64,000 nucleotides of DNA from Candidatus Polarisedimenticolaceae bacterium (GTDB taxonomy: Bacteria > Acidobacteriota > Polarisedimenticolia > Polarisedimenticolales > DASUFT01): positions 79-64,078 of the forward strand of contig DASUFT010000057.1 in NCBI GenBank assembly GCA_036274395.1. Reading direction: 5' to 3'. Numbering within the stretch: position 1 is the first letter of the stretch; each line of letters starts with the position of its first letter. A program made the translations under genes and the position numbers. Below are positions 3,401 through 48,409 of this stretch, one piece after another. The notes under the pieces were generated by a model, which saw nothing but the letters and a program-made list of their open reading frames with translations, was not told the DNA's origin and ran no database searches.

Positions 3401-3898
3401 GGCACGGCCGAAGTCGAGCACCACGGCGGACGGGTCGGCCCAAGGAGCCAGGACGAGCTCGAGCTCGAGGCCGGCCGGTCCTCCCCGGAACAGCACGTCC
3501 ACGCCGGGGTAGACGCCCCGCCGGAGCAGCCCTCCGAACGTGGGGACACCCGTGACCCAGCCCTCGGGATCGGACCCGGCCACGTAGTGCACGAGCCCGG
3601 GGGAAGGCTCGACCGGCTCCAGCGTCCCCGGGTCTGCTCCCCCCAGGAACCCGAAGCCGAGCGCCGCTTCCCCGGGCAGCTCCACCCGGCCTGCCGCGAA
3701 GGAGACCCTTCCCCCGGCCGCCCGCAGGGCGAACGCGACGTCCGGCCCGAACTGACCGCGGTTGGGCTCGATGGCGGGACGGCGCCCGGTCGCGTGCTCC
3801 ACCGCCAGCGTCGGCGGCACGGGGTGGGAGGCGACGAGCGGAAGAAGGGCAGCGACGACGAGGAAAGGCCTCGAGGCCCGGAGGAAGGGCGTGGACAT
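1..3898 (-). CDS. Giant secreted surface protein. The 5' end is complete and the C-terminus runs off the left edge (>1299 aa). Domains: signal peptide, SBBP-type beta-propeller repeats, autotransporter-like beta-strand repeats, one DUF11-like domain and MopE-like Cys-rich repeats.
   Basis: Absent from the ORF track because it has no stop inside the window. Hand translation from the ATG at 3898 gives MSTPFLRASRPFLVVAALLPLVASHP..., a signal peptide. The same frame is still open at the edge, where 118..1 reads NVHPGVLEQCNGEDDDCDGNVPATEANGDDDGFRICDGD. A spot check at 598..542 reads AAPGGPSFSSSVTSAECDP. No listed ORF sits in this frame. Motifs: GEIWVAGRTASADLPV and GTLHIAGTTTSADFPV (SBBP-like); DCDDxxxxVHPGAxEQCNGxDDDC (MopE-like). 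Confidence 0.8.
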   Translation of the reverse strand, partial: MSTPFLRASRPFLVVAALLPLVASHPVPPTLAVEHATGRRPAIEPNRGQFGPDVAFALRAAGGRVSFAAGRVELPGEAALGFGFLGGADPGTLEPVEPSPGLVHYVAGSDPEGWVTGVPTFGGLLRRGVYPGVDVLFRGGPAGLELELVLAPWADPSAVVLDFGRAGAFRLDGEGAAILESGAEAVRIGQPALGTLLPAGGTVALHLNRGSGDASAPVHVHLSIDILVPPGRGLADLPRLATGAGGDVFVAGSLGGVELDARSARRGEHRGHPHRGARELQPGDAPLAERTGAFVSRVSGETVLETAWFGESMERPEAIATTPEGDVVLVGERGEDAFVLRLSRSGLRPIAEAAIGGAGEDVAQALAVDDGGEIWVAGRTASADLPVTDDALQAHPGGRTDGWVAHLDAALSVTSLTYLGGRGDDEATALAFDGNGTLHIAGTTTSADFPVRSPLQAFGGGRDAFLATLDPATGALRQATCYGADGDETPLGLAVHRGGDVLLLGKDAQPFLVRVAGDGSAVLQTVRLELPAAALALDPAGRIWIAGTLEGEEDGLTDAFVARLVPETFAPEETHLLAGDREDRAGALLLDARGRALLAGLTRSDELPGTTRTESTASGDVFLARIVPDTEAPQGTCPGDTHWVGPASGEDWATAANWSAGVPTATTDACIQNAAVIVSTAGQTAKSLRVEGGGAALTISGAGSLTLANASEIDAPFTLSSGTLTGDGSLTLSGLFTWGGGTMGGTGTTTANGGIAFTTAAEKTLTRTLIHSVGQNAVLSGTGPLMINSPGVLSNLGIFEHQTDASVTGSGTFDNAGSFLRTTSVGTAQISLGFTNSGTLEALSGDLHFTGPSLVQTAGSTTVNGGTITNAAPLLIQGGTLRGTGTITGSVSNTGGAVSPGLSPGTLNLVGGYTQGPGGDLTLELGGLTAGTEHDWLTLTNPGFGSVDAALDGSLTVSLVNGFAPAIGDSFTVLTGDTRTGTFATTNLPAFGCGKTWNVQYNATTVVLEVVAQPGSSDLVITPFVAPDPVAAGDPVTYSPKVGNSGPDDATQVTLTTTLPAGATFVSASSGCSEAGGIVTCAMGTIPAGSGSSAEIVVTFAAPGGPSFSSSVTSAECDPNPTDNTDRTISLIVLPACPDDDGDGYAVCSTGVACLPTGGDQCGDCDDSNGDVHPGAAEQCNGVDDDCTNGVPADEADDDTDGFRVCDGDCDDLDGNVHPGATEQCNGIDDDCADGIPADEGDGDGDGSRVCAGDCNDANPNVHPGVLEQCNGEDDDCDGNVPATEANGDDDGFRICDGD

Positions 3899-3967
3899 GA
3901 ATCCCCCCGTTTCGATCTTTGTGCTGAAGGAGACGGATTTTGCCCCAGGTCAGGGGCACGCAAGCAA

Positions 3968-4774
3968 CTAAAAAGTTACGTGCGCCAGGAATGCAGCGAT
4001 CCGCTCCCCGGCCTCGATCCGGGTGAGCAGGGCGTCGTGCCCCGCACCCTCCACCCGCACGAGCTCCGCCATGCCCGGACGCGCCGCCGCAAACAGCCGC
4101 TCCGCGTGGGCGAAGGGCACCACCTCGTCGTCCGTTCCGTGCACGAAGAGGACGGGGACCCCGAGGGAGGGTAGGTGCGCGCGGCCCCGGAAGGCGTCCG
4201 GGTCCACGCCCACCAGGCGGCGCGCGCTCCTGTGCAGCGTCCTCCGGAACCAGCGAGCCGGGATCCCCTTGCGCTCGAGATACACCTCGGTCGCCTCCAT
4301 GGGGCCCTCGGCGGACGCCACGACCACCAGGGCCGACCACCGGGGATCGGTGGCCGCGCTCACGATGGCGCCGATGCCGCCGAAGGAGTAGCCGAGCAGC
4401 GCCGCACGCGCGCCGTTCAGGTGATCCGCCACCGCGCGCAGGTCCTCGACCATGAGGGCGGCGTGGTACGCCTCCGCCGGCCCGGTCCTGCCGTGCCCGG
4501 GCAGGTCGAGGAGCAAGGCGGCAATCCCCGCCCGCAGCAGCGGACGGGCGAGCGGGGCCATGCGGCCGCCGTCCGAGGACCAGCCGTGCACGAAGACGGC
4601 TGTCCCCCGCACCGATCCCTCCGGCCTCACGTGCCAGGCCTTCATGGGGCGCGGTCCCGGGATCGTCACGTCCTCGGCGCGGGCCACCATGTCCGGCGGC
4701 AGTGCCCGCGGCCTGCGCTGCGGCGGACGGAGCACGCGCCTGAAGAGAGGATCGAGGACGAAGCGTGGGAGCAC
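3968..4774 (-). CDS. Alpha/beta hydrolase (serine hydrolase fold)
   Basis: This is the C-terminal part of track ORF 3968..5506. It contains HGWSSDG, the nucleophile elbow GYSFGG, and VHGTDDEVVP plus GAGHD. The N-terminal 240 aa of the track ORF are low-complexity and overlap the real plus-strand gene at 4904. The start was trimmed to the GTG at 4774. The ATG at 4690 is an alternative. Confidence 0.75.
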   Translation of the reverse strand: MLPRFVLDPLFRRVLRPPQRRPRALPPDMVARAEDVTIPGPRPMKAWHVRPEGSVRGTAVFVHGWSSDGGRMAPLARPLLRAGIAALLLDLPGHGRTGPAEAYHAALMVEDLRAVADHLNGARAALLGYSFGGIGAIVSAATDPRWSALVVVASAEGPMEATEVYLERKGIPARWFRRTLHRSARRLVGVDPDAFRGRAHLPSLGVPVLFVHGTDDEVVPFAHAERLFAAARPGMAELVRVEGAGHDALLTRIEAGERIAAFLAHVTF

Positions 4775-5344: not shown

Positions 5345-6564
5345 CCGACGGCGAGCCTCCGCGGACGCTCGCGCACCTGGAGCCGGTTCACCCCCTGATT
5401 TTCTTCCATGGGGAGGTCCGGCAGGACGAAGCGGAACACGGATCCCCGGCCCAGCTCGGACTCGACCCAGATGCGGCCCCCGTAGCGCTCGACGATCTTC
5501 TTGCACACGGCCAGGCCGATCCCGGTTCCGGGGTAGCGCTCCTGGGTGTGCAGCCGGCGGAACAGCTCGAAGATCCGCTCGTGGTATTCCGGGGCCATGC
5601 CGATCCCGTTGTCCGCCACCGCGAACACCCAGCCCATCCCCTCGCGGGCCGCGGAGATCTCCACGTGCGGCGCCCGGTCCCCACGGAACTTGAGGGCGTT
5701 CCCCACCAGGTTGAGGAACACCTGGGTGAGCTGGGTCTCGTTTCCGGCCAGCACGGGGAGGGGACCGACGGTCACCTCTGCACCCAGCTCCTCCAGCGTG
5801 GGGCGGAGGTCTCGGAGGACGCTGCGCACCACGGTCCCGATGTCCACCGGGGCCACCGTGGACGGGGCGGCATCCACGCGGGAGAAGGAGAGCAGGTCGT
5901 TGATCAGGCGGTGCATGCGGTCGGCACCGGCCGCGATGTACCCCAGGAACTCGTCGCCATCGCTTCCGAGCTGGTTCTGGAAGCGCAGGGACAGGAGCTG
6001 CGTGTAGCTCAGGACGGCCCGAAGGGGCTCCTGGAGGTCGTGGGAGGCGACGTAGGCGAAGCGCTCCAGCTCGGCGTTCGAGCGCCGGAGCTGGTCCGCC
6101 TGCTTGCGCAGCTCCGCCGCCGTGCGCTCCCGCTCCCGCAGGTGCGCGCGGATCTGGTACTGGCGGCTGCGGGCGCGCAGCGCATTGCGGAGCGCCCCCA
6201 CCAGGGTGGCCACCCGGACCGGCCGCTCCAGCAGCAGCACGTTGCTCAACCGCTCCAGGGACCAGAGGGCCGCCGGAGAATCCGCCCCACCGCTGCAGAG
6301 CAGGATGAGCGGGAAGTCGGACCAGGGGGGCTGCGCCCCCAGCAGGTCGGCCAGCCTCTCCCTCTCCTCGCCCAGCAGCGCCTCCTCGGTGATCAGCACG
6401 GCACCCGCTCCCCGGCGCAGGGCGGAGCAGAGCGCGTCCATGTCGCGGCAGGGCAGGGCGAGCACTCCCTCGCCCGCCAGGACCTCGGCCGCCAGGCCGG
6501 CGTCCCTGCCCACCGGGGCGAGGATGAGCACCCGGCGCTCCCGCGCGCCCTGCCCGTCAGGCAT
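5341..6564 (-). CDS. Sensor histidine kinase with an N-terminal pseudo-receiver domain
   Basis: H-box FAYVASHDLQEPLR, N-box LNLVGNALKF, and G-boxes DNGIGM and GTGIGLAVC. The N-terminal 120 aa look like a receiver fold, but the acidic pocket is missing (LILAPVGRD in place of DD, VLITEE in place of the phospho-Asp). The start overlaps the kaiC-like stop by 8 nt. Confidence 0.9.
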   Translation of the reverse strand: MPDGQGARERRVLILAPVGRDAGLAAEVLAGEGVLALPCRDMDALCSALRRGAGAVLITEEALLGEERERLADLLGAQPPWSDFPLILLCSGGADSPAALWSLERLSNVLLLERPVRVATLVGALRNALRARSRQYQIRAHLRERERTAAELRKQADQLRRSNAELERFAYVASHDLQEPLRAVLSYTQLLSLRFQNQLGSDGDEFLGYIAAGADRMHRLINDLLSFSRVDAAPSTVAPVDIGTVVRSVLRDLRPTLEELGAEVTVGPLPVLAGNETQLTQVFLNLVGNALKFRGDRAPHVEISAAREGMGWVFAVADNGIGMAPEYHERIFELFRRLHTQERYPGTGIGLAVCKKIVERYGGRIWVESELGRGSVFRFVLPDLPMEENQGVNRLQVRERPRRLAVG

Positions 6565-19709: not shown

Positions 19710-22700
19710 TCACCTCCCCTGCCTCAGGCGGGCATCCGGCTGCTTGGGGGGGCCGCCGCGCCGCCAGAAGATCTCGGGCTCGATGGCCAGGGGATAGCCG
19801 CTGTCGGCGCCCCAGGCATCGGTGAGCTCCCGCTTGACCGCCTCCAGGCGCCGGTGCACCAGGTCCGCCTCCTCGGTGTCGGCGACGTAGGAGAGGCGGA
19901 GCACGGCGGGCGCCTTGCGCAGCTCGTCCAGCAGCAGCTGCAGGCGCGGCTTCCACTGCACGCGGATCTCCGTGCTGCCGGGCTCGAAGGCGGGATCGGA
20001 GAGGTCGAGGGCCACCACCCGGTGAATGGAGGCGCCGAAGTCCATGAGCAGGGCCTTGCCGCGGGTGGCGCGCTTCACCAGCACCTGGTCGGTGGACAAG
20101 CGGAAGCCGCTGGGCAGCGTGCGGTCGTCGAGCTTGAGCACGAAGTTGCTGCCGCGGTACTCGTTGGGCACGATGGCGCAGGTGATGTGATAACGGCCGA
20201 AGGGGTCGGTGATGGCCTGCAGGCCCTGCACCGTGGCCAGGCGGACGCCGGGCAGGCCGTCCTCCCCCTCTTCCTGGCGGCCGTTGCGGTTCCTGTCGTT
20301 GAAGACCTTGCCCATCACGTCGGTGCAGTCGAGCGTGGGATCGGGCACCACCCGCACGGTGGCGGTGGCCTCGCCGGAGATGGCGGCGCCGGTCACGCCC
20401 TCCACCACCTGGGCCCGGTTCACGTACTCGCCCTCGGTGATGCCGGCGCCGGCGGCCAGGAGCAGCTTGACCGTGCTCACCTGGGTTCCCGCCAGGACCA
20501 GGCCGTTCCACCGGAGCTCGCGGCCCGCCACCGCCGGCTCCACGGGAACGCCGTCGAGGACGGCGGAGCCGGGAACGTAGGTGAAGCCCGCCGGGAAGCG
20601 ATCCACCAGGGTGACGTCGGTGAGGAGCAGGCCGGCGACGTTGTTGAGGGTGATCGTGTAGGGCACGAGCTGGCCGCGCGTCACGTCCAGCAGGGGCGTG
20701 GTCTTGGAGATGGCGACCGAGCCGTCCAGCACCGGATCCAGGGGGATGTGGTTGTTGAAGATCTCGCTGGAGCCGGGAGTGCGGCTGCTGTCCAGGCGCA
20801 GGTGCAGGTGGTGGACGGTGCCCACCGTGCGCGCGGGCACCGCCGCCGCCGGCGCCAGCTCCGACGGCTGCACCTCGCAGTAGAGCGGCGTGGCCGGGAT
20901 GGCGTCGTCGGGGCTCATCGGGCAGGTGGGGACCGAGAAGGCTCCCGGGACGGGGGGGATGATCTGCGACTGGCCGGTGACGTAACCGCCTCCCGGGGGA
21001 GGGGTGACATCGATCAGGTACTCGCCGCCGCTGGGACAGGCGGGGTCGCTGAAGTTGACGTCGAACTTGTAGTAGCCGCCGGCCAGGGTGATCTGTCCCT
21101 GCTGGGCGCTGTCGTCGAAGCAGCTCACGGGCAAGGGGGAGCCGCCGAGGTCGCGCAGGGTGAGGGTGACGCCGGCGATGGGGACGCGCGCCATGGAGTT
21201 GTAGACCACGCCGTTGGGATCGATGGGAAGGTTCAGGTTCTGCAGGTTGGCGTCGGGCGGCACCACGATGTCGCTGATCTGCTGCGGCCCGTTGGTGAAG
21301 ACGGAGGAGGCCCGGCCCAGCATGGCCGTGCGCGCACCCGCGCCGGGAGCACGGAAGCGGATCTCGTAGCGCACGCCCGTGCCCTGGTTGGGCTCCACGC
21401 CCAGGATCTGGTAGACGCCGTTCCCATCGGTGACGGAGGTGTGCACCAGGACGCCGTCGCGGTACAGGTCCACCGCCCAGCCCGAAAGCGGCCGCTCGCC
21501 GAGATCGCGCCCATCGTCGAAGTCGGCGTCGTGCCAGGCGGCGCCGTGCAGCGCGGCCACGCCGGGGATGCCACCGACCACGATGGAGACGCTGGCGCTC
21601 GCCGTCTGGGTGGGCGTGTTCCAGGTGACCACACCGGTGTTGGTCACCACCGTCCCCTGCGCCAGGCCCGCGTCGAGCGTGGCCCGGAAGCGGAGGACGA
21701 CGCTCTCGCCGGGCTCGAGGGGACCGCTCACCGCGTTGTAATCGGCGGTGATCGTGGAGCCGGCCACGGTGACCCCGGCGGTGGCGCCGTTCATGGTGGC
21801 CGAGCCGGTCACGTAGGCGAGCTGCCCCGCGGGCAAGGTGTCCGTGAGCACCACGCTGAAGGCGGGAACGGCGGCGATGTTCAGGACGCGGACGGTGTAT
21901 TCCAGCTCCGCGCCGGGCATGGCGGCACCGCCGCCCACCACCGTCACCTGCTTGCTGATGGAGAGCTGCTGGCCGGCGCCCACCACCACCACCGTCGGCT
22001 CGGGACCGGTGGCCGGGTTGCCGTCACCGTCGGTGAGGAGGTCGGGGAGCTCGACGCTGTCCACCACCGCCTGGTTGCTGATCAGCGTGCCCCCGGGCGT
22101 GCCCAGGTTGACGCGGAGGTCGAACTGGAGGGTGGCGGTGGCGCCGGAGGCGATGGTGCCCACGGCGATCCCGGAAGCGAGCGGGGAAACGCCGCCGTCC
22201 GGCTGACCCACCGGGGCTCCGTTCAAGTAGGTGGAGTTCGCCACGTAGGTCGTGTTCGCCGGCACCTGGTCGGTGAGGACCACGCCCGTGGCCGGGGTGG
22301 GGGCGGAGTTCTGGATGGTGATCGTGTAGCGGAGCGTGTCGCCGGGATCGACGATCCCCGGCGAGCCCAGGTCCACGGACAGGGCCACCCGCTTCTCCGC
22401 GTAGAGGAGGGGGAAGTTGCCGACGATGTCCCGGGTGGGGTCGTTGGCGACCGGCGTGTCCGGATCGTCGGAGGGCACGTCCACCACGCCCTGGCCCACG
22501 GCGGAGACGAAGCCCTGGTTGGAGATGACGGTGCCGTCCACGACGCCGGGGTCCACCACCACGTCGAAGGTGATCGTGGCCACGCCACCGACGGGGATGT
22601 TGCCGATGGGCATGCCGTTGACGAGCGGCGAGAGGCCGCCGGAGTCCGCCACCGCCGTCCCGTTCAGGGTGGTGCTCCCCGCCACGTAGGCCGTGTTCAC

Positions 22701-24725
22701 GGGGATGGCGTCGCGCAGCACGACGCCGGTGGCGGCACCGTTCCCGGTGTTCCGGACGGTGATCGTGTAGCGCAGCGTCTCCCCGGCCAGGAGGACGTTG
22801 GGGTCGCCCGTGAGGTCGGTGGAGATCTTCTGCACGAGGAACGCGGGGGAGGCCTGGATGGTGAGACGGGTGGGGTCCTCGTCTCCGGCCACGTCCGGGT
22901 CGGCGATTCCGTTCACGTTGGGGTCGTCGCTCAGGGCGAAGACCGTGTTGTTGGGGAGGCGGAGGGTGGCCTGATCGGCCACCACGGTGCCGTTGACCAG
23001 GCCCGCCGCCAGGGTGATGTCGAACTGGATCACCACCTGGCCGTCGGCGGGCAGACTGAGGCCGCCCACGTCGAGCACCCCGGTGCCGCGGACACCACCG
23101 CTGGGGTTGGTGCCGCTGGTGTTGGCCCCGGGCGGGACGGTGACGAGCGCGAGCGAACCCGGGACGAAGGACGCCTGTGCGTTCAGCGCATCCATCTCGT
23201 CGACGATGCGGAAGCTCTGCAGTCCCTGGTCGGTGGAGCGGAAGCGCAGGGTGTAGCGCAGCCGGTCCCCCGGCGCCGCCGTGGTCGCGGGGTCGGCACC
23301 GCTGGTGAGATCGGCCACCGTCTTCTCGAAGAAGAAGCCGGTGAGGGCCACCGTCACGGTGTGCGCGTCCTCGTGGTCGGAGATGCCCACGGTGCCGTTG
23401 GTCAGGGTGCGGTCGTAGGCCACACGCTCTGGGTTGCTGGCGTCACCGTTGAACCACTGAATGGCGCCCGCCACGTTGGTGAGGGCGACGCCGTCCTGGG
23501 TGTTCCCGTCCAGCACCGTCCGGTAGCGGACGATCAGTCGCTCGCCCGCACCGATGACGGATGCCGGCGTGAGCATGCGCAGGTCGAGCCGGCAGGTGGG
23601 CGCTCCGGTCCAGCTCAGCGTGTAGTCCACACCGGCGTTCAGGGGTCCCTTGCCGGGCACCGGCGTGACACCGTCGGCGGCGAAGACCTGGGCGCTCTGG
23701 ATCTGGGGCGCCTGGTCGCACATGCCGCCGTTCGGTCCGTCCGGGAGGAGGTCCCGGACGGAGGCGTTCCAGGCTTCGCCGAGCCCGGTGTTGCGCACGT
23801 CGAGGACGAAGTCGCCCCACTGCCCGAGGTTCATGGTGGCGGGGCCGGACTTGTCGAAGATCAGCACCGGGGCCGCGATCGTCAGGGGCGGCGAGATGCC
23901 CCACTCGCCGGGCAACGGCTCGTAGAAGGTGCCCGAGATGAGTCGGCCGAAGTCCCACTTGGCGGTGTTGACGAAGGTGGTGCCGGGCACGTTGACGGCC
24001 GGGTTGTCGTTGAGGACCGCGGTGAGCTCGATGACGAACTGGCGGCCGGCCACGACGATGGGGATGTTGTCCCAGGTGAGGAAGCCCCCCACGTTGGTGA
24101 AGGTGTGGGGAACGGGTGTTCCGTCGTCCTCCCAGTAGATGTTGTAGCCGACCAGGCTGAGATCGACGCCGGTGGCGTTGAGGTCGTCCCAGACCGTGAT
24201 GCTGTGCAGATCGTTGAGGCTGCCCTGGTTGTCGATGATGGTGCCGTCGGCGGGGTTGAAGAGGACGGGGATGATCATCTTCCAGGTGAAGGGGACGCCG
24301 ATGGTGGCGGTGGTCCGGTTCGTGGGGACGTTCTGCTTGTCGATCTTCTCGACGGGAATGAGGAGGGCGAGGCAATTCTCCTGGACCGTGGTGGACGCGC
24401 TGTTGACGAACCAGATGAAGTTCCCCTGAGCGCTGAGGTTGCAGGACATGTTGCCGGTGTGCACGACGTTGTCGAAGATGAGCAGCCAGCTGGTGGGATT
24501 GTTGCCGAACCAGCTGATGTTGGAGGTGAGGGGATTGGAGGCGGGATAGTTCCGGATGGTGCAGGGGCCGTCGATGTTGATCTGAGGGGGGGGCACGGGG
24601 TAGTTGACGAAGCCGTCGATCACCCCCCCGGCGTCGGCCACGCAGTCGATCGCCCATGCCGGGACGGCGGAGAGCGCCGCCAGCGCGAAGGCGACGAACA
24701 GGATTCCCAGCCGGCGTGCACTCAT
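19710..24725 (-). CDS. Giant secreted adhesin-like protein (1671 aa) with multiple DUF11 repeat domains and SdrD B-like / Cna-B-like domains
   Basis: The start was trimmed to MSARRLGILFVAFALAALSAVPAWA (ATG at 24725). DUF11-type units include LRYTITVRNTGNGAATGVVLRDAIPVNTAYVAGS, LRYTITIQNSAPTPATGVVLTDQVPANTTYV and LEYTVRVLNIAAVPAFSVVLTDTLPAG. SdrD-B-like units include HGAAWHDADFDDGRDLGERPLSGWAVDLYRDG and GKVFNDRNRNGRQEEGEDGLPGVRL. The stop lies 5 nt before the next start. Confidence 0.88.
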   Translation of the reverse strand: MSARRLGILFVAFALAALSAVPAWAIDCVADAGGVIDGFVNYPVPPPQINIDGPCTIRNYPASNPLTSNISWFGNNPTSWLLIFDNVVHTGNMSCNLSAQGNFIWFVNSASTTVQENCLALLIPVEKIDKQNVPTNRTTATIGVPFTWKMIIPVLFNPADGTIIDNQGSLNDLHSITVWDDLNATGVDLSLVGYNIYWEDDGTPVPHTFTNVGGFLTWDNIPIVVAGRQFVIELTAVLNDNPAVNVPGTTFVNTAKWDFGRLISGTFYEPLPGEWGISPPLTIAAPVLIFDKSGPATMNLGQWGDFVLDVRNTGLGEAWNASVRDLLPDGPNGGMCDQAPQIQSAQVFAADGVTPVPGKGPLNAGVDYTLSWTGAPTCRLDLRMLTPASVIGAGERLIVRYRTVLDGNTQDGVALTNVAGAIQWFNGDASNPERVAYDRTLTNGTVGISDHEDAHTVTVALTGFFFEKTVADLTSGADPATTAAPGDRLRYTLRFRSTDQGLQSFRIVDEMDALNAQASFVPGSLALVTVPPGANTSGTNPSGGVRGTGVLDVGGLSLPADGQVVIQFDITLAAGLVNGTVVADQATLRLPNNTVFALSDDPNVNGIADPDVAGDEDPTRLTIQASPAFLVQKISTDLTGDPNVLLAGETLRYTITVRNTGNGAATGVVLRDAIPVNTAYVAGSTTLNGTAVADSGGLSPLVNGMPIGNIPVGGVATITFDVVVDPGVVDGTVISNQGFVSAVGQGVVDVPSDDPDTPVANDPTRDIVGNFPLLYAEKRVALSVDLGSPGIVDPGDTLRYTITIQNSAPTPATGVVLTDQVPANTTYVANSTYLNGAPVGQPDGGVSPLASGIAVGTIASGATATLQFDLRVNLGTPGGTLISNQAVVDSVELPDLLTDGDGNPATGPEPTVVVVGAGQQLSISKQVTVVGGGAAMPGAELEYTVRVLNIAAVPAFSVVLTDTLPAGQLAYVTGSATMNGATAGVTVAGSTITADYNAVSGPLEPGESVVLRFRATLDAGLAQGTVVTNTGVVTWNTPTQTASASVSIVVGGIPGVAALHGAAWHDADFDDGRDLGERPLSGWAVDLYRDGVLVHTSVTDGNGVYQILGVEPNQGTGVRYEIRFRAPGAGARTAMLGRASSVFTNGPQQISDIVVPPDANLQNLNLPIDPNGVVYNSMARVPIAGVTLTLRDLGGSPLPVSCFDDSAQQGQITLAGGYYKFDVNFSDPACPSGGEYLIDVTPPPGGGYVTGQSQIIPPVPGAFSVPTCPMSPDDAIPATPLYCEVQPSELAPAAAVPARTVGTVHHLHLRLDSSRTPGSSEIFNNHIPLDPVLDGSVAISKTTPLLDVTRGQLVPYTITLNNVAGLLLTDVTLVDRFPAGFTYVPGSAVLDGVPVEPAVAGRELRWNGLVLAGTQVSTVKLLLAAGAGITEGEYVNRAQVVEGVTGAAISGEATATVRVVPDPTLDCTDVMGKVFNDRNRNGRQEEGEDGLPGVRLATVQGLQAITDPFGRYHITCAIVPNEYRGSNFVLKLDDRTLPSGFRLSTDQVLVKRATRGKALLMDFGASIHRVVALDLSDPAFEPGSTEIRVQWKPRLQLLLDELRKAPAVLRLSYVADTEEADLVHRRLEAVKRELTDAWGADSGYPLAIEPEIFWRRGGPPKQPDARLRQGR

Positions 24726-24908
24726 CCTCTCCCCCGTCGCGACAGGGAGGGACCGGGGAACACGTCCACGCCGTCCGTGGAGGGGATTCCGGCGGTCCCG
24801 CTGTCCTGGGGCCCCCGGGGGCCCGTTAGACCGGTGACTTTGCGTCGCCACCTTTCGATGGCTTTGCCTTTGTCAGAATCGATTCCAGCGCGCGCTGTTA
24901 CATGCTCG

Positions 24909-41292: not shown

Positions 41293-44200
41293 ATGCGAGC
41301 GTTTGCCGCCGTGTGCCTTCCTCTCGCCGTGCTCGCGGCGCGCGCGGCCCAGCCAGAACCGATCTCCGAGCGCACGCTGAGCGTCGCCGTGGTCGTGCAC
41401 CGGGACGGCGCCGCCCTGGCGGCTTACACGGTGAAGGCACGGCCGTTCCTGGCCGCGGAGGGCGCGACCAGCGCCTCGCAGCAGCTGGAGGTGGTGCTCC
41501 GTGGGCCGGAGGGGGCCGCCATCGTGCGCACGCAGCCGATCCAGGGGCTCTGCCTGGAGCACCCGCGCGGCGCGGAGCCCCACATCACCGGCGACACCAT
41601 CCTGCTCCACGAGGAGACCTTCGTCGTGGAGCTGCCGGAGCTTCCCGGCTTCGACCAGGTCTCGGTCGGCGTCCAGGAGGACACGGGCAAGGCGTCCCGG
41701 TCCATGGCCCTGGGCACGTTCGCCCTCGACGCCGGGCACTTCCAGCGCGCGGCCGGCGAGCTGGCGTACGAGGACCTGGCGATCGCCGGGCAAGGGGTGG
41801 ATCTCCCGGTGGGCTCGCCCGCGCCGTTCGCGGCCACCGTGCACTGGCCCGAGGAGTACAGCGACCCGGACGTCTACCGCGTCTACGGCGACGCCGCGGA
41901 GGTGGCCCGGCGCATCAACGTGGTGATCGTCCCCGACGGCTATCGCTACCAGGACAAAGCGCTGATGGAGAGCCACGCCGCGGCGCTGGTGGCGAGCTTC
42001 CGGGCCAAGACCCCTTTCGCGCAGCACGACTCCTTCTTCAATTACATCCTGGTCTACGCGTACTCCACGGCCAGCGGCACCGATCAGTGTGACTGCTCCG
42101 TCGTGGCCGACACGGCGATGGGCACTCGATTCCCGTTCGGCAACGGCATCTGCGGGCACTCGGACAATCGCTGCCTGTACTACGGCTCCGGCTGCGACAG
42201 CGACGGCCAGTTCAACATCGCCAGCGCCGAGCTGCGCGCGCCCGCCATGGACGAGAGCGTGGTGATGGTCAACACCACCCGCTACGGAGGGTGCGGGGGG
42301 CAGCGCGCCGTCTACTCGGCGGGGCACAGCGCGGGGCCGGACGTCGTCACCCACGAGCTGGGCCACTCCTTCAACGGCTTGGCGGACGAGTACGACGGCA
42401 CCGCGGCCTGCGGCACCTCGGCGGGCGAGATCAACACGTCACGCAACGCCTCCACCGGTGCCTGGCCCGAGTGGATCTCCCAGATCGGTGCGCCCTGGCA
42501 GGGCGCGCAGTACTACAACCAGTGCCTCTACCGGCCGCTGTCGAACTGTCACATGCGCTCTCTCGGTCCGGCGTTCTGCCCGGTGTGCATCCAGCACCTG
42601 TCCCTGGGGGTGTTCGGCCACTTCCGCGTTCATCCCACGGCGCCCATCACCTCGGCGACGCCCGAGCCCACGCCCACGCTCCCCGTGGGCCTGCCCAACC
42701 ACTTCGAGGTCGTGACGCGGCTCCCCCAGGGGGGCATCAACGCCATCACCTGGACCGTTAGCGGCCCGGCCAACCCCACGCCCGTGGTGGTGCAAACCGA
42801 CTGGCCCTACCTCGACTACGTGTTCCCCCAGGAGGGCCAGTACCAGGTGAGCTGCGAGGTGATCGCGGACACGAACTTCATCAAGCCCTCCAGGTACGGC
42901 GCCAACCGCGACACCCAGTTCTGGCTGGTGACGGCGACCTGCGTGGGGGGCGGGGGCAGCGGCCTGCCCGACGGCGACGGGGACACGGTGGCGGACGTCT
43001 GCGACAACTGTCCGCTCCTGCCCAACCAGGCCCAGACGGACAGCGACGGCGACGGTGAGGGCGACGCGTGCGACGGCTGTCCGCTCGATCCCGGGAACGA
43101 CGGCGACGGAGACGGCCTCTGCGCCGAGGTGGACAACTGTCCCGGCCTCGCCAACCCCGGCCAGGAGGATGGCGACGGAGACGGGGCGGGGGACGCCTGC
43201 GACAACTGCCTCGCGCTCGCCAACCCCGGCCAGGAGGAGAGCGACGGCGACGGCGTGGGGGACGCCTGCGACAACTGCCCCGCGGCGGGGAATGCCGGCC
43301 AGCAGGAGAGCGACGGAGATGGGGTGGGGGACGCCTGCGACAACTGCCTCCTCAATCCCAACGGCGGCCAGGAGAACCTCGACGGAGACCCGAACGGCGA
43401 CGTGTGCGACAACTGCCCCACCGTGGCCAACGCCAATCAGTTCAACGGGGACGGTGACGGCCTCGGAGATGCCTGCGATCCCTGTCCCGCCGACCCGCTG
43501 AACGACATCGACGGGGACGGGCGATGCGCGCAGGTGGACAATTGCCCCTTCGCCGCCAACCCCGGTCAGGCCGACTCCGAGCTGGCGCCCCCCGCCGCCC
43601 TGGTGCAGTGGGCGTCTTTGGTCACCGCCAGCAGTCAGTGGACGGCGGACGAGTACTCGGCGATGCAGGCGGCCGGTCCGCCCCAGTATCCCGGCCAGTG
43701 CGTCGATGCGCCCTCCAACTGGTCGCCTGCCACGGACACGTCGAACCCCGAGTGGCTCGAGCTCGTGTATGCGACCCCCGTGCTGGCGAGCGCCGTCTCC
43801 GTCCACGAGCAGACGGAAGCACCGTTCGTGACCGCCGTCCAGCTGCGGGGGACGGACGATGCCTTGCGCACGGTGTGGGCGGCGGCGGATACGACGCTGT
43901 GCGGAGAGACGCTCGAGGTGGCCTTCTCCCCCCGTCCCTACCTGGCGGACGCGGTCGTGGTGCGGACGGCGGCCCCCTTCTTCGAGGAGGTCGATGCCGT
44001 GGGCCTGGAAGGTGTGGGCCGGGTCGCGGTTCCCGACGGCGTGGGGGATGCCTGCGACAACTGCGCCGGCTCCCCGAACGCCGGCCAGAGCGACTCCGAC
44101 GGCGATGGGGTCGGCGACGCGTGTGACTGCGCTCCCACGGATCCGGCATCCGCGGGGCCGGGCGGGGTGACCGGTCTCGTGGTCGCCAAGCCGACGCCCG

Positions 44201-44472
44201 ATACCGCTCGGCTGAGCTGGACGGCGGTCCCGGGCGCGGAGGCGTACTCCATCACGCGTACCGGCCTGGCCGAGGTGGGGACGTGGGCGTACGGACCGTG
44301 CCTGGCGGAGGGCATCGCCGGGACCGCGTTCGACGATCCGGCGCTCCCGGCCTCCGGGCAGGGTTACGTGTATCTCATCCAGCCCTGGACGGAAGCGTGC
44401 GGCGCGGGCACGCTGGGGGAGCAGGCGCCGGGGAACGAGCGCTTCAACGCCGACCCCGACCGCTGCCGCTAG
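41293..44472 (+). CDS. Secreted M64-like zinc metalloprotease (1059 aa) with thrombospondin type 3 repeats, a galactose-binding-like domain and the shared C-terminal module
   Basis: Signal peptide [35 protein letters not shown] is the M64-type HExxH...DEY motif. At least 7 TSP3 units (DxDxDGxGDxCDNC) are present. The C-terminus reads ...[38 protein letters not shown]-stop. Confidence 0.88.
43003..43480 (+). repeat. In-frame tandem coding repeats (mostly 69-bp / 23-aa units) encoding thrombospondin type 3 calcium-binding repeats
   Basis: Units recur with the pattern gacaactg(c/t)c...ggccag...gacgg(c/a)ga(c/t)gg...gg(g/c)ga(c/t)gc(c/g)tgc. They translate to DNCPxxxNPxQxxxDGDGxGDAC. Confidence 0.8.
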
Positions 44473-45365
44473 AGGGGCCCTTCCAGGGCCAGCCCCTCCC
44501 GGATCTTCTCCTGGATCTTGCGGATGAAGCGGCCGCGGACGCTCTCGGAGTAGCCGGCGGCGCGGAACGCATCGTCCATCTGGCGGGGACTGAGGCCGGC
44601 GAGCAGGCGGCAAGCCCAGACCACGTCGTCCCGCCTCACCTGGCCTCGCAACCTGGGATGGCGCCACTGCAGCGCCAGGTGCACCTGCTGCTCCGAGACC
44701 CCGAGGATGAACTTCGTCCGTTCGTAGCCGTCGACGTCGTTCCGTGTCCCGGCGCGGATGCTGGGCTTCCCCAGCGCCGCCCCCAGGTCCTGCACCACGT
44801 AGCGCCGGCGGGGACCGGGCACGTCCTCGTCCATCGTGTAGATCCGGTTCTGGCCGCTGTCCAGGTCCCAGTTGTCGAGGAGGACGTTGATCACGAAGAG
44901 GCCGTGCAGGGGCTGCGTGCCGCTGAACGGGTTCCGGCGCCACGGCCAGTCACCCTCCTTCTCGTGATCGGACTCGAGGCGGAAGCGGCCGGGGGCAGGA
45001 TGCCCGGTGGGGCCGCCGGTCATGCGCCAGTCGTCCACGTAATAGGTGACCGGCTGGTGGAACCCGACGGCCCAGAGGATGCGGGAGACGACGAGCTCGG
45101 CCTGGGCCTCTTCCCCGATCTTCACGTCCCAGTGCCGTCCCCCGGCGTCGATGACCTCGTAGCCGCCGGAGTGGCCCTCCCTGTCCTCGGACACGAACCG
45201 GAACGGCCCGTCGGCGGGTGCGAGCGCCGTTCCACCCGGGCCGTGGAACAGATCGCGAGAGGAGAGGTCCTGCGGCGGCTCCCACAGCTGCTCCAGTGGG
45301 GCCTTCTCCGCGGCTGCGAGGGGGAGGAAGAGCGCGGCCAGGAGGAGGGGGGCGGCTCGACTCAT
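44469..45365 (-). CDS. Secreted conserved hypothetical protein (298 aa)
   Basis: Signal peptide [19 protein letters not shown]. The composition is not low-complexity ([48 protein letters not shown]). The stop codon overlaps the M64 stop within a CTAG tetranucleotide. Confidence 0.65.
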
Positions 45366-45380
45366 CTCCAGCCTTGCCGG

Positions 45381-45406
45381 GGCGGCCCGGCACCCGCCGG
45401 GCCGCC
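45381..45406 (-). terminator. Perfect 11-bp GC hairpin with a 4-nt loop, downstream of the DsbA-like gene
   Basis: ggcggcccggc (45381-45391), accc, then gccgggccgcc (45396-45406). It starts 9 nt after the stop at 45415. There is no U-tract. Confidence 0.55.
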
Positions 45407-45414
45407 TCCATCGT

Positions 45415-46191
45415 TCAGTTCGCCGCCAGAGCCTTGTCGAGATCCGCCTTGAAGGAGTCGTAGGGCTTGGCGCCCACCATGGCCACGATGCCCTTCACCT
45501 TCTTGGGGTCCTTGGGGTCGGTGAGGGCGATCATGAAGCTCGGGGTGCCGGTGATGCCGCCCTTCTGCGCTTCCTTCATGTCCGCCCGGATCGCTTCGGC
45601 GTGCTTGTCGTTCTTCATGCACGCCTCGAACTCGGGGACCTTCAGGCCGATCGCCTCGGCGTGCCCGTTCCAGGGCTCGAGCGCCTGCTGGTTGGTGAAG
45701 AGGCGATGGTGCATCTCCCAGAACTTGCCCTGGTCACCCGCGCAGCGCACGGCCTCGGCCGCGTCGAAGGCCTTGTTGTGCATGGGCAGGGGCATGTCCA
45801 GCATGGCGTAGCGGATCTTTCCGGAGTCGATGTAGTCGGTCGCGATCTTCGGGTACGTCTCACGGACGTATCTCGAGCAGAACGGTCACTGATAGTCCGT
45901 GAACTCGACCAGGGTCAGCTTGGCGGTGGCGGAGCCCTTGGTGGGGTTCGCTCCCAGGTCGAACACGATGTCCTTGACGTTCGGTCCCGCCGGCGCGGGC
46001 GGGGCCTGCCGCGCCGCCATCAGCTTCTTGATCTCCTCGAGCTGCTTCAGGATCTCCTGCTGTCCCTGCTTGAGCCCGTCGATCTCCTTCCGGAGATCGT
46101 CCTTCGATTCCTGCGCGAGGACGGAGGCGGGAGCGGCCGCCAACAAGGCCGCCAGCGCCGCCCCGGTCCCCCTCGAGATCACCTTCCGCAC
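45415..46191 (-). CDS. DsbA-like thioredoxin-fold oxidoreductase (258 aa). It reads through an in-frame TGA at codon 102, at the first Cys of the CxxC motif, and is a probable selenoprotein (UxxC).
   Basis: Track ORFs 45886..46191 and 45415..45804 are in the same frame (777 nt in total). My translation across the junction reads KLTLVEFTDYQ-TGA-PFCSRYVRETYPKIATDYIDSGKIRYAMLDMPLPMH. The family consensus at this position is EF.DyqCPfC. The gene has a GTG start with AAGGAGG upstream and a signal peptide followed by a coiled-coil N-terminus. Confidence 0.7.
45854..45870 (-). other. Candidate bacterial SECIS-like hairpin downstream of the in-frame UGA
   Basis: The minus-strand RNA reads UGA-CCGUUCUGCUCGAGA-UACGUC-CGUGA-GACGUA. 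This is a 6-bp stem starting 15 nt after the UGA, with a 5-nt apical loop containing GU. A short lower stem (UCG/CGA) is also possible. Confidence 0.4.
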
Positions 46192-46251
46192 GATGTCGCC
46201 TCCTTTGGAATCGTCACGCCGGAGATTGTGGCATGAAACGCCGTCCTCTCG

Positions 46252-47394
46252 TCATTCCTCGATCGTCCGCCACGCGCGCGTGCCCGTGCCGCCATCCTCC
46301 ACCACCCGGAACGTCACCGCGGCCAGGGCCCGGCCGTCGTCGGTCTCCGCCGTCACCCGCCACCGCCCCGGCTCGAAGTTGGATTTCACGGCGTAGGCCC
46401 GGAAACCCCTGGCGCGCCCCCCCACCACGGGGAGGCGGATGCGATCGCGGGTGCGCCATCCCCCCTCCCCGCCCCTGGACTCCCAGCGCGCGTAGACCGC
46501 GTGCCGGAACCGCGTGGGGGCGAAGACGCGGACGAAGTAGTGCAGGCGGTCGCCCGGACGCGTCCGGAACGGGCGCGAGTCCTGCCTCCAGAAGAGATGG
46601 AGGGGCGGTTTCTGATAGGTGAGGAGGAACGCGCTGTCCTGCCGCAGAACGTCGTGGTAGATCCCCTGGAACTGCACGGAGAGCGGAACGGGCGGGATCA
46701 GGCGAAAGACGTAGAGTCCGCCGATGAGGAGGCAGACGGTGAGGGCAGGGAGGAACAGGCGAGCGCGGACCGCCCTCCGATCGGCCGCGGGCGCCGCCAG
46801 CCGGTCCGCCACCAGCCACACCACTCCGGCGGAGAGGGAGAGCGCGAGCAGGAACACCCAGCCGGACATGCGGCCGATCAGGAGGGGAACGAAGTAGTTG
46901 AGGAACGAGATCACGCAGAAGGCGTAGAGGCCGAGGCGGAGCCGATACCCTGCGCGCCGGACCTGCGGCATCTCGTTGAGGAACATCAGGGCCACCAGGA
47001 GGAGGAAGAAGACCAGCGGCCGCGCCCGCGTGCTGCTCTTCAGGTAGAGCACCACGTACGCGCTGAGCAGTCCGCCATAGAAGAAGTGGAGGACCTCGAC
47101 GTTGTGGGCCCAGAGCCGCCCCACCGGGGCCGGCGGCTCCCATTGACCGCGCGCTTCGCGATGCTGGTAGAGGAGGAGGACCGTGAGGGCGGCGAGATAG
47201 AAGAGCTGGATGGCCAGGTCCGTCCAGGCGTCGATGCGGCGCATGGTGGCGAGGTCGAACAGGAACCCCGCGGCGAACATCACCACGTTGGAGTGGCGGC
47301 GCAGGAGATGCAGGGTGCTCAATCGGCCGGCACGCAGGAGAAGGCGGCGCTCGCGAGGACGCGGCCCTCGGGATCGCGTGCCTCCACCGTCCAC
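46252..47394 (-). CDS. Multi-pass membrane protein with a C-terminal DUF2914-like domain (about 380 aa, start uncertain)
   Basis: At least 6 hydrophobic segments are present (LAIQLFYLAALTVLLLY, LVFFLLLVALMFL, LGLYAFCVISFLNYFVPLLIG, WVFLLALSLSAGVVWLV, LFLPALTVCLLIGGLYVF). The C-terminal pattern is YARWESR...GWRTRDRIRL...GRWRVTAETDDGRALAAVTFRV. The listed start at 47394 overlaps the upstream gene by 76 nt. The ATG at 47280 is an alternative. Confidence 0.75.
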   Translation of the reverse strand: MDGGGTRSRGPRPRERRLLLRAGRLSTLHLLRRHSNVVMFAAGFLFDLATMRRIDAWTDLAIQLFYLAALTVLLLYQHREARGQWEPPAPVGRLWAHNVEVLHFFYGGLLSAYVVLYLKSSTRARPLVFFLLLVALMFLNEMPQVRRAGYRLRLGLYAFCVISFLNYFVPLLIGRMSGWVFLLALSLSAGVVWLVADRLAAPAADRRAVRARLFLPALTVCLLIGGLYVFRLIPPVPLSVQFQGIYHDVLRQDSAFLLTYQKPPLHLFWRQDSRPFRTRPGDRLHYFVRVFAPTRFRHAVYARWESRGGEGGWRTRDRIRLPVVGGRARGFRAYAVKSNFEPGRWRVTAETDDGRALAAVTFRVVEDGGTGTRAWRTIEE

Positions 47395-48233
47395 TCACCG
47401 GTGGAGCCTTCCGGGAGCAGGCGGCGGCTCTGCGTGCGCCACTGTGCCGCATTCACGTTCAGCTCCGCCTCGGCGATGGACCGGCCCCCGTACCGCCACA
47501 CGTGCAGGATCTTGTCTCCGGGACGGCCGCCGGCCACGTGGGTCCAGAACCACACGACCGTCCCCTCCCGGAACTGGTGCCCACGGCCCACCAGGCGATG
47601 GTGGAGAACGTTCGTGCCGACGCCGAACTCCCCGACCGTCAAGTGGCCCGCGCTCGATGCGGCCGGAGCGGGCACCTCGGGTGGCGGTGAGGGCTCGGGC
47701 GGGCGCGGCGCGACCGCCACGGGCGCGATGGAGGGCGCGCGCTCCACCCGCGGCGGGGCCTCGGGGATGGTCTCGTGCCAGAAGGTCCAGAAAAGAAGGG
47801 CGGCGACCCCCGCTCCGCTCAGGCCCAGCGCGATCCACTTGATTCTCGATCGCACCCGGCCGGCCTGGATTCCCTGACTCTGCGCGAGCTTCTCCAGGAA
47901 GGCCCTGGCCGCATCCTGTGCGTCCCGGCCGCGCAGCGACGCGTCGTCGAATCCCGCAATCCGCCGCTCCCGCGCGTAGGCCTGCAGCAGGTGCTCCGGG
48001 TCCAGGCCGAGGTACTGCGCGTAGGTGCGAAGGTACCCGCGCGTGAACACGTCCGCGGGGAGGGAGTCCCAGTCGTGGCGCTCCAGGGCGTGGAGATAGC
48101 GCAGCTGGATCCTGGTTTCCTCGGACACCTGCTCGAGCACGGCATTGCGGTGCTCCCGTGCCATGCGGAGCTGGTCACCGAGCCGCGTCACACCATCACG
48201 CGCACCACGGCGTGCCCGCGCGCTCGCGTGCAT
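47319..48233 (-). CDS. RodZ-like HTH membrane protein with a C-terminal DUF2914-like domain (304 aa)
   Basis: The start was trimmed to MHASARARRG (ATG at 48233). LGDQLRMAREHRNAVLEQVSEETRIQLRYLHALERHDWDSLPADVFTRGYLRTYAQYLGLD matches the RodZ-type HTH pattern. A TM segment (WIALGLSGAGVAALLFW) and a Pro-rich linker follow. The C-terminus reads ILHVWRYGGRSIAEAELNVNAAQWRTQSRR...GEWTVEARDPEGRVLASAAF. Confidence 0.8.
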   Translation of the reverse strand: MHASARARRGARDGVTRLGDQLRMAREHRNAVLEQVSEETRIQLRYLHALERHDWDSLPADVFTRGYLRTYAQYLGLDPEHLLQAYARERRIAGFDDASLRGRDAQDAARAFLEKLAQSQGIQAGRVRSRIKWIALGLSGAGVAALLFWTFWHETIPEAPPRVERAPSIAPVAVAPRPPEPSPPPEVPAPAASSAGHLTVGEFGVGTNVLHHRLVGRGHQFREGTVVWFWTHVAGGRPGDKILHVWRYGGRSIAEAELNVNAAQWRTQSRRLLPEGSTGEWTVEARDPEGRVLASAAFSCVPAD

Positions 48234-48409
48234 GGCGCCGCGGCTGGACACGGCCACGGTGGACGGCAACGCCCCGGTTTCCCCCTTCAATGGATGCGCC
48301 TCGCCTCCAGGAGGGGATTCCCGCAAGGACCGTGCCCCGGCAGGGGAGGGGCCCCCTCGAACAGGACGGAGGGTTCCACGCATTCAATGCCGTCATCGCC
48401 GGCGCCAGA

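Follow-up and report, generated by a model that had tools for sequence, protein, structure and literature searches.

Selenoproteins related to DsbA and DsbG, with selenocysteine (Sec, U) in a UxxC motif, have been known since 2004-2005. Both a "DsbA-like" (COG2761) and a "DsbG-like" (COG1651) UxxC family were described from Sargasso Sea data (Zhang, Fomenko & Gladyshev 2005, PMC1088965). A DsbA-like selenoprotein was also described in Anaeromyxobacter dehalogenans, Desulfovibrio desulfuricans and Desulfotomaculum reducens, and a DsbG-like one in Symbiobacterium thermophilum (PMC1794560). A 2026 review lists both families, the DsbG-like one corresponding to the NCBIfam model NF041057, "Rcas_1661 family thioredoxin-like (seleno)lipoprotein" (PMC13188914). 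Here, we analysed a stretch of 64,000 nucleotides (hereafter the window) from contig DASUFT010000057.1 of Candidatus Polarisedimenticolaceae bacterium (Acidobacteriota), whose minus strand carries at 46191..45415 a gene of this kind with an in-frame TGA. With high confidence, we read it as an intact and functional selenoprotein gene, predicted to encode a secreted thiol-disulfide oxidoreductase of the DsbA fold with a U-P-F-C active site. This kind of family is already known, and the window gene is a new member, at most a sub-clade, of the published UxxC DsbA/DsbG-like selenoproteins.

Like the DsbG-like family, the window protein presents UxxC at the same active-site position in a PF13462/DsbA-type fold. 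NF041057 is its best NCBIfam match (E = 3.2e-32), with a score of 112 bits where the curated cut-off is 190; its relatives score between 96 and 170 bits, the closest one reaching 96. Unlike the lipoproteins of NF041057, however, it has no lipobox and no cysteine in residues 1-101, its signal ends in ASVLA before QE, and it possesses an N-terminal helix of about 30 residues. Since its score is below the cut-off and the lipobox is lacking, the window protein is a homologue outside the curated family. The Chloroflexota genes nearest to NF041057 (141-170 bits) carry an identical UGA-CCN...ACGUCCGUGAGACG module. With the DsbA-like "form 1" (PF01323, COG2761), it shares a UPFC motif inside the DSBA-domain match, the pairing of Sec forms with widespread Cys homologues and a hairpin of the selenocysteine insertion sequence (SECIS) type directly 3' of the UGA. 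It fits PF13462 better than PF01323 and is predicted to be exported, which may set it apart from form 1.

The initial annotation of the window had proposed that two minus-strand open reading frames (ORFs), 46191..45886 and 45804..45415, share the same frame and are joined by a single TGA; sequence and translation bear this out. Between the two ORFs, there are only the TGA at 45888-45886 and 27 sense codons. The fused gene comprises 258 codons, its sole in-frame TGA being codon 102, and its translation across the junction reads ...AKLTLVEFTDYQ-TGA-PFCSRYVRETYPKIATDYIDSGKIRYAMLDMPLPMH..., with LTLVEFTDYQ as the residues preceding the TGA. The GC content at the third codon position (GC3) is 0.87 before the TGA and 0.94 after it, matching the real genes of this window of 71% GC. 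When U is read as C, Pfam detects Thioredoxin_4 (PF13462; residues 83-235, E = 2.3e-27, 96.6 bits for a cut-off of 23.2) and DSBA (PF01323; residues 93-251, E = 3.8e-16, 59.9 bits for a cut-off of 25.6), and both matches span the junction. ORF lists and gene callers instead render the region as two genes, i.e. a secreted coiled-coil protein of 101 residues and a protein of 129 residues starting at ATG 45804. That callers split such genes, as the initial annotation had anticipated, is illustrated by a metagenome relative (77% identity) called as genes of 100 and 145 amino acids; the 145-residue database protein (P0108) is the downstream half of another TGA form. We consider the existence of two genes practically negligible as an explanation: a product starting at the ATG would be deprived of a signal peptide, of the redox motif and of the first strand of the fold, the junction lies inside the Pfam domain (residues 83-235), and all relatives conserve the protein sequence encoded by the 27 codons from TGA to ATG. 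A genome-wide reassignment of UGA was also ruled out: TGA terminates 22 of the 31 other ORFs of the window, and UGA is therefore an ordinary stop codon in this genome.

Then, we investigated the codon-102 column in 80 homologous loci from other species, retrieved with peptide patterns by scanning one genome per GTDB species. TGC or TGT is found in 69 of them (45 and 24, respectively), in which this codon encodes the first, nucleophilic Cys of CxxC, and TGA in the remaining 11. The comparison with Cys-containing homologues thus places the TGA where the initial annotation had located it. All 11 TGA loci belong to the 17 most similar of the 80 (42-63% amino acid identity to the window protein), and their hosts are Acidobacteriota as well as metagenome-assembled genomes (MAGs) of Thermodesulfovibrionales and other Nitrospirota; the same column also holds TGA in locus L082. 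In each of the 11 loci, an open frame that can be aligned extends about 156 codons past the TGA; one relative (L012/L118, see below) has another in-frame TGA farther on. Compared with the closest relative found (L159, from a Terriglobia MAG; 82% amino acid identity), the ratio of nonsynonymous to synonymous substitution rates (dN/dS, Nei-Gojobori) amounts to 0.22 before the TGA and 0.14 after it, which indicates that selection maintains the encoded protein beyond the TGA in this frame. The protein-level alignment and this purifying selection agree with the uninterrupted conservation noted initially. A pseudogene, i.e. an ordinary CxxC DsbA-like gene hit by a TGC-to-TGA nonsense mutation and decaying in its downstream part, would need only one base change, and the nearest full-length proteins in the database (71-75% identity) carry Cys. 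The lack of visible Sec machinery in the window and the extra lesions of a few relatives, both detailed below, also speak in its favour. Such a history is at odds with 156 downstream codons free of stops and frameshifts, with the GC3 and dN/dS values given above for this part, and with the presence of the same TGA in 13 independently found Sec forms and in at least 119 further loci from many phyla.

The initial annotation had also described, 15 nt after the UGA, a 6-bp stem with a CGUGA loop as a possible bacterial SECIS, and this hairpin is present. The bacterial SECIS (bSECIS) model specifies an apical loop of 3-9 nt with a G within its first two positions, an upper stem of 4-16 bp, a distance of 16-37 nt from the UGA to the loop and a minimum free energy (MFE) of -7.5 kcal/mol or below (PMC13188914). 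Here, the loop counts 5 nt with G at position 2 followed by U, the stem 6 bp and the distance from the UGA 21 nt, and the region from +11 to +41 folds at -9.4 kcal/mol, all of which lie within the model; the bare 17-nt hairpin reaches only -5.3 kcal/mol. The 14-nt core ACGUCCGUGAGACG (45869-45856), 16 nt past the UGA, occurs in all 13 Sec forms found via protein similarity, i.e. the window gene and 12 others, in the same register, and can be written ACGUCCGUG(A/G)GACG; these 13 protein-derived forms are the only independent evidence for its invariance. Codons 109-112 (V109-R110-E111-T112) read GTC CGT GAG ACG in all 12 aligned Sec forms, with the exception of GGG (Gly) at codon 111 in L008. 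There is no synonymous variation at these codons, whereas about 60 other conserved residues of the same forms use two to five codons each. In the Cys homologues, both the amino acids and the codons of this region vary (e.g. CAC ATC AAG AAC ACA, or GTT CGG GAG ACG). A constraint on synonymous sites that is restricted to TGA forms and to one evidently recent Cys convert is a further argument against the pseudogene, which we regard as very unlikely. The preference of the initial annotation for a selenoprotein and for a SECIS element is thus supported by the conserved TGA, the open frame, the downstream selection and this Sec-specific nucleotide constraint.

The SECIS elements of Escherichia coli fdhF and fdnG are experimentally characterised. 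The predicted element resembles them as an intragenic hairpin located just 3' of the UGA, at a similar distance and with a small loop containing G-U. It differs by the absence of sequence similarity and by a shorter upper stem (4 invariant pairs plus 1-2). The Cys convert mentioned above is P0004 (L083 6871-7653 and L084 6636-7418), a TGC form with 75% identity in which the exact core ACGTCCGTGAGACG is intact. Because this TGC form keeps the core, it is best seen as bearing a fossil SECIS after a recent switch from Sec to Cys.

We also screened the GTDB species-representative genomes (596 Gb) with the pattern UGA-CCN-TWY-TGY-N7-ACGTCCGTGRGACG, which combines the UGA, the codons for P-[FY]-C and the core and can also be written TGACCNTWYTGY-N7-ACGTCCGTGRGACG. 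At least 119 loci were matched. Among the matches listed, 120 out of 120 are in frame within homologous genes; identity to the window protein ranges from 35 to 82%, and nearly all remain open for 150-185 codons past the TGA. Their hosts span about eight phyla (Acidobacteriota, Nitrospirota, Chloroflexota, Rokubacteria, Methylomirabilis, Binatia, Deltaproteobacteria, Nitrospinae and one Verrucomicrobiia MAG, among the matches listed). This perfect specificity of the pattern counts as evidence. Several copies may coexist in one genome: a Thermoanaerobaculia MAG carries two Sec-form paralogues in tandem (L122, 3122-3154 and 4100-4132, minus strand), and the Acidobacteriota MAG CAZKNR01 has four Sec-form copies on separate contigs (L102, L136, L141 and L200).

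Next, the E. coli proteins SelA, SelB and SelD served to probe the related loci for Sec machinery. In an Acidobacteria MAG (L126), a full-length SelB is encoded at 2538-4460 (plus strand), about 2 kb from the Sec-form gene (6464-6496, plus strand), and carries the SelB-specific winged-helix and beta-barrel domains. There, selB lies upstream of the DsbA-like gene and SRP54 (ffh) adjoins on the other strand; in JAZFTY01, selB and a Sec-form gene are likewise on the same contig. The Sec machinery may thus be loosely linked to this selenoprotein gene. A search with the L126 SelB returned 80 loci, and 8 of those assemblies also carry a Sec-form gene (JADFOI01, JACZQQ01, JAZFTY01, JAPUKI01, JAZFRU01, CP070717, DKBB01 and JAFGAO01). 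Next to the L126 SelB, neither SelA, SelD nor tRNA-Sec was found, and the flanks of about 280 related loci yielded this one SelB only; SelA and tRNA-Sec were absent from them, as was any credible SelD. The UGA could alternatively be read through at a low level without SelB, by a near-cognate tRNA (Trp or Cys) or a suppressor that would insert a standard residue and not Sec. UGA followed by C, as in this gene, is a leaky termination context, and in one relative (L012/L118) a further in-frame TGA coincides with a Trp codon of its neighbour. Such read-through leaves unexplained the invariance of synonymous sites over 14 nt at SECIS distance, the confinement of the UGA to the redox Cys column and the co-occurrence with SelB, and we attribute to it only a slight probability.

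Regarding the protein, the top PDB sequence match is the DsbA of Corynebacterium diphtheriae (4PWP), whose CPFC aligns with UPFC; 7UNN, Bacillus subtilis BdbD (3EU3), ScsC, DsbA-like, metal-resistance and copper-resistance chains were also matched. As a stand-in for the window protein, we modelled a Cys homologue with 74% identity (P0001) with AlphaFold2 (AF2). The model (predicted local distance difference test score, pLDDT, of 89.6) displays one long helix (30-60), followed by a thioredoxin fold with a strand at 93-99, a helix at 104-112 starting at CPFC and a helical insert at 142-211, while its signal-peptide region has low pLDDT and is disordered. Foldseek retrieved DsbA-family structures with E values down to 5e-14. 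For the catalytic domain, the best matches are Wolbachia alpha-DsbA1 (3F4R), B. subtilis BdbD (3EU3) and C. diphtheriae DsbA/TsdA (4PWP, 7UNN), with E values from 5e-14 to 4e-11 and template modelling (TM) scores, normalised to the target, of 0.59-0.79. These proteins have a CxxC with Cys, and none possesses the N-terminal helix. As in alpha-DsbA1, a second conserved Cys pair is found in the helical insert of the window protein: C150 and C191 are invariant in 55 sequences, and the PDB entry of this top fold match is named C97A/C146A. By this analogy, C150-C191 is a candidate for a second, structural disulfide in the insert.

The N-terminal helix may find its counterpart in the trimeric ScsC/BcfH proteins (Proteus mirabilis 4XVW/5IDR/5ID4, Caulobacter 7RGV, Salmonella 7JVE), which combine an N-terminal helical stalk with a DsbA-like catalytic domain. 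Foldseek aligns them over the full length (243-257 columns, N-terminal helix included), and PDB sequence matches reach 9.4e-11. A Thr-Pro in a G-T-P motif is also shared; G215, T216 and P217 are invariant or nearly so in the homologues, and Thr216-Pro217 is presumably the cis-Pro loop of the thioredoxin fold. In contrast, identity is limited to 18-23%, the root-mean-square deviation amounts to 10-15 Å since the stalk is oriented differently, and the ScsC/BcfH proteins use Cys. The periplasmic location put forward by the initial annotation is supported by the predicted signal peptide, which ends in VLA before QE, and the orthologues have equivalent hydrophobic N-termini ending in A-x-A/Q.

According to the mechanism that we propose, the UGA at codon 102 would be decoded by Sec-tRNA(Sec) delivered by the elongation factor SelB, itself recruited by the coding-sequence hairpin UACGUC-CGUGA-GACGUA with its apical loop 21 nt past the UGA. 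The 258-residue precursor would be exported to the periplasm through its signal peptide. There, the U102 selenolate would attack substrate disulfides or oxidised cysteines, and Cys105 would resolve the mixed selenenylsulfide. We infer from the sequence evidence that Sec is actually inserted in this organism. A selenolate at the attacking position favours nucleophilic, i.e. reducing or isomerising, chemistry, and the fold is nearest to the less oxidising alpha-DsbA1 and BdbD and, with the helix, to the ScsC/BcfH isomerases. For these two reasons, a role as reductase or isomerase (ScsC/DsbG-like) would be favoured over that of primary oxidase.

Several observations weigh against the selenoprotein interpretation. 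Within the window, Pfam annotation of about 30 ORFs detected no selA, selB or selD, and ARAGORN no tRNA gene of any kind. The hairpin is short and thermodynamically ordinary, as 197 out of 200 shuffles of the 76-nt stretch are equally or more stable (z = +1.6). Stability was consequently dropped as evidence and, being no better than chance, leaves cross-species conservation as the only ground for the significance of the hairpin. The helix receives no support from covariation: RNAalifold retains only four pairs, all of them invariant, and pairs that never vary cannot provide such support; counts of the pairs likewise revealed no compensatory changes within the core. The lower stem is variable, with no clear covariation or consistent pairing in 112 distinct family sequences. 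A check with covariance models, suggested together with the initial annotation, gave no Rfam family matching the element, the only matches being at chance level on the opposite strand. The invariance of the core in the at least 119 pattern-derived loci is by construction and was not counted as evidence. The oligomerisation of the window protein, suggested by the modelled stalk, and its catalytic direction are both inferred. Lastly, extra lesions (a second TGA, frameshifts, an insertion) affect 4 of about 120 family genes.

These lesions are of different kinds. In the Sec form L012/L118 (JAKLQR01, a Thermodesulfovibrionales MAG), the second in-frame TGA lies at about 3655, where the close relative L010 has Trp (TGG), and protein similarity persists beyond it; possible causes are a nonsense mutation, an error in the consensus and leaky decoding of UGA. 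The Sec form L154 (OZ253507.1) is interrupted after ...AIRKDM by a few hundred inserted bases, the gene resuming in a different frame, and the Sec-form orthologues L186 and L163 are frameshifted. The disruptions of L154, L186 and L163 may be assembly errors or real decay. Assembly error is possible for the lesion genes since at least two of the four come from MAGs of the MFD series, which we take to be long-read assemblies.

Features of the selenoprotein locus in the window (residue numbers refer to the 258-codon product)
Feature	Position	Strand	Basis
Predicted complete selenoprotein gene, GTG start at 46191, true stop TGA 45417-45415	45415..46191	-	sequence, translation, Pfam, GC3
Shine-Dalgarno AAGGAGG, 7-nt spacer to the GTG start	46199..46205	-	direct sequence reading
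Predicted signal peptide, residues 1-26, MRKVISRGTGAALAALLAAAPASVLA before QE, signal-peptidase-I type, without lipobox Cys	46114..46191	-	sequence
Long amphipathic N-terminal helix, about residues 28-60 (DLRKEIDGLKQGQQEILKQLEEIKKLM), candidate coiled-coil or oligomerisation stalk	46012..46110	-	AF2 model of P0001, Foldseek
DsbA-like thioredoxin-fold domain, residues 83-235	45487..45945	-	Pfam, PDB sequence matches, model, Foldseek
In-frame UGA, codon 102, predicted selenocysteine, next bases CC	45886..45888	-	sequence; homologue column
Redox motif U-P-F-C, codons 102-105	45877..45888	-	alignment; 4PWP CPFC
Predicted SECIS apical hairpin, 6-bp stem UACGUC/GACGUA, 5-nt loop CGUGA	45854..45870	-	folding, conservation
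Extended SECIS region, +11 to +41 from the U of UGA, imperfect lower stem	45847..45877	-	MFE -9.4 kcal/mol
Cys150, invariant	45742..45744	-	conservation
Cys191, invariant	45619-45621	-	conservation
Thr216-Pro217 in the conserved G-T-P motif, putative cis-Pro loop position	45541..45546	-	conservation
11-bp hairpin, all pairs G+C, GGGU loop, 8 nt past the stop, without U tract	45381..45406	-	folding

The hairpin following the stop codon has an MFE of -34.7 kcal/mol (z = -4.3; 0 of 200 shuffles equally stable) and was not reported by a scan for terminators with a T-run; it is likely a transcript-end or stabilising structure. Directly upstream of the DsbA-like gene, on the same strand, two consecutive genes encode DUF2914 proteins (46252-47394 and 47319-48383, minus strand), the second of which also carries an HTH_25 domain. 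The first DUF2914 gene ends 60 nt ahead of the DsbA-like start, and the three genes may form an operon. In a nucleotide BLAST of positions 44001-48000 of the window against L159, the alignment is confined to the DsbA-like gene. Elsewhere in the window, only one other same-frame ORF junction has coding signal on both sides (33349); this second selenoprotein candidate was rejected, since a new ATG and a signal peptide mark it as an ordinary boundary between genes. A c-di-GMP-I riboswitch (Rfam RF01051, 75 bits, E = 6.6e-13) is located at 24788-24878 (minus strand), directly 5' of ORF 19710-24872 (minus strand), the product of which, a giant repeat protein with DUF11 and SdrD_B domains, counts about 1,700 residues. 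This arrangement suggests that cyclic di-GMP (c-di-GMP) controls a surface adhesin-like protein.

At a larger scale, current annotation models may be missing a large clade of periplasmic selenoprotein isomerases/reductases to which the gene would belong. Its members would be secreted, stalk-bearing (ScsC-like) and possibly oligomeric, and would occur in Acidobacteriota, Nitrospirota, Chloroflexota, Rokubacteria, Methylomirabilota, Binatia and other groups. The UxxC-plus-SECIS module of this clade, whose 14-nt core does not vary between phyla, would have spread in one piece, with repeated switches between Sec and Cys that left fossil SECIS in Cys forms. We propose this scenario tentatively, as less likely than not. 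Knowledge of Sec decoding is unchanged by the finding, which is mainly a point of annotation, as gene callers split or drop the gene. Since they do so and NF041057 misses its cut-off, a periplasmic selenoprotein is probably mis-annotated in at least 119 species-representative genomes. UGA-CCN-TWY-TGY-N7-ACGUCCGUGRGACG, which retrieved only true family members in 596 Gb among the matches listed, could be used as a simple detector. As for the uncultured organism of this window, it is likely a selenium user, in which a selenol would be placed in the redox chemistry of the envelope.

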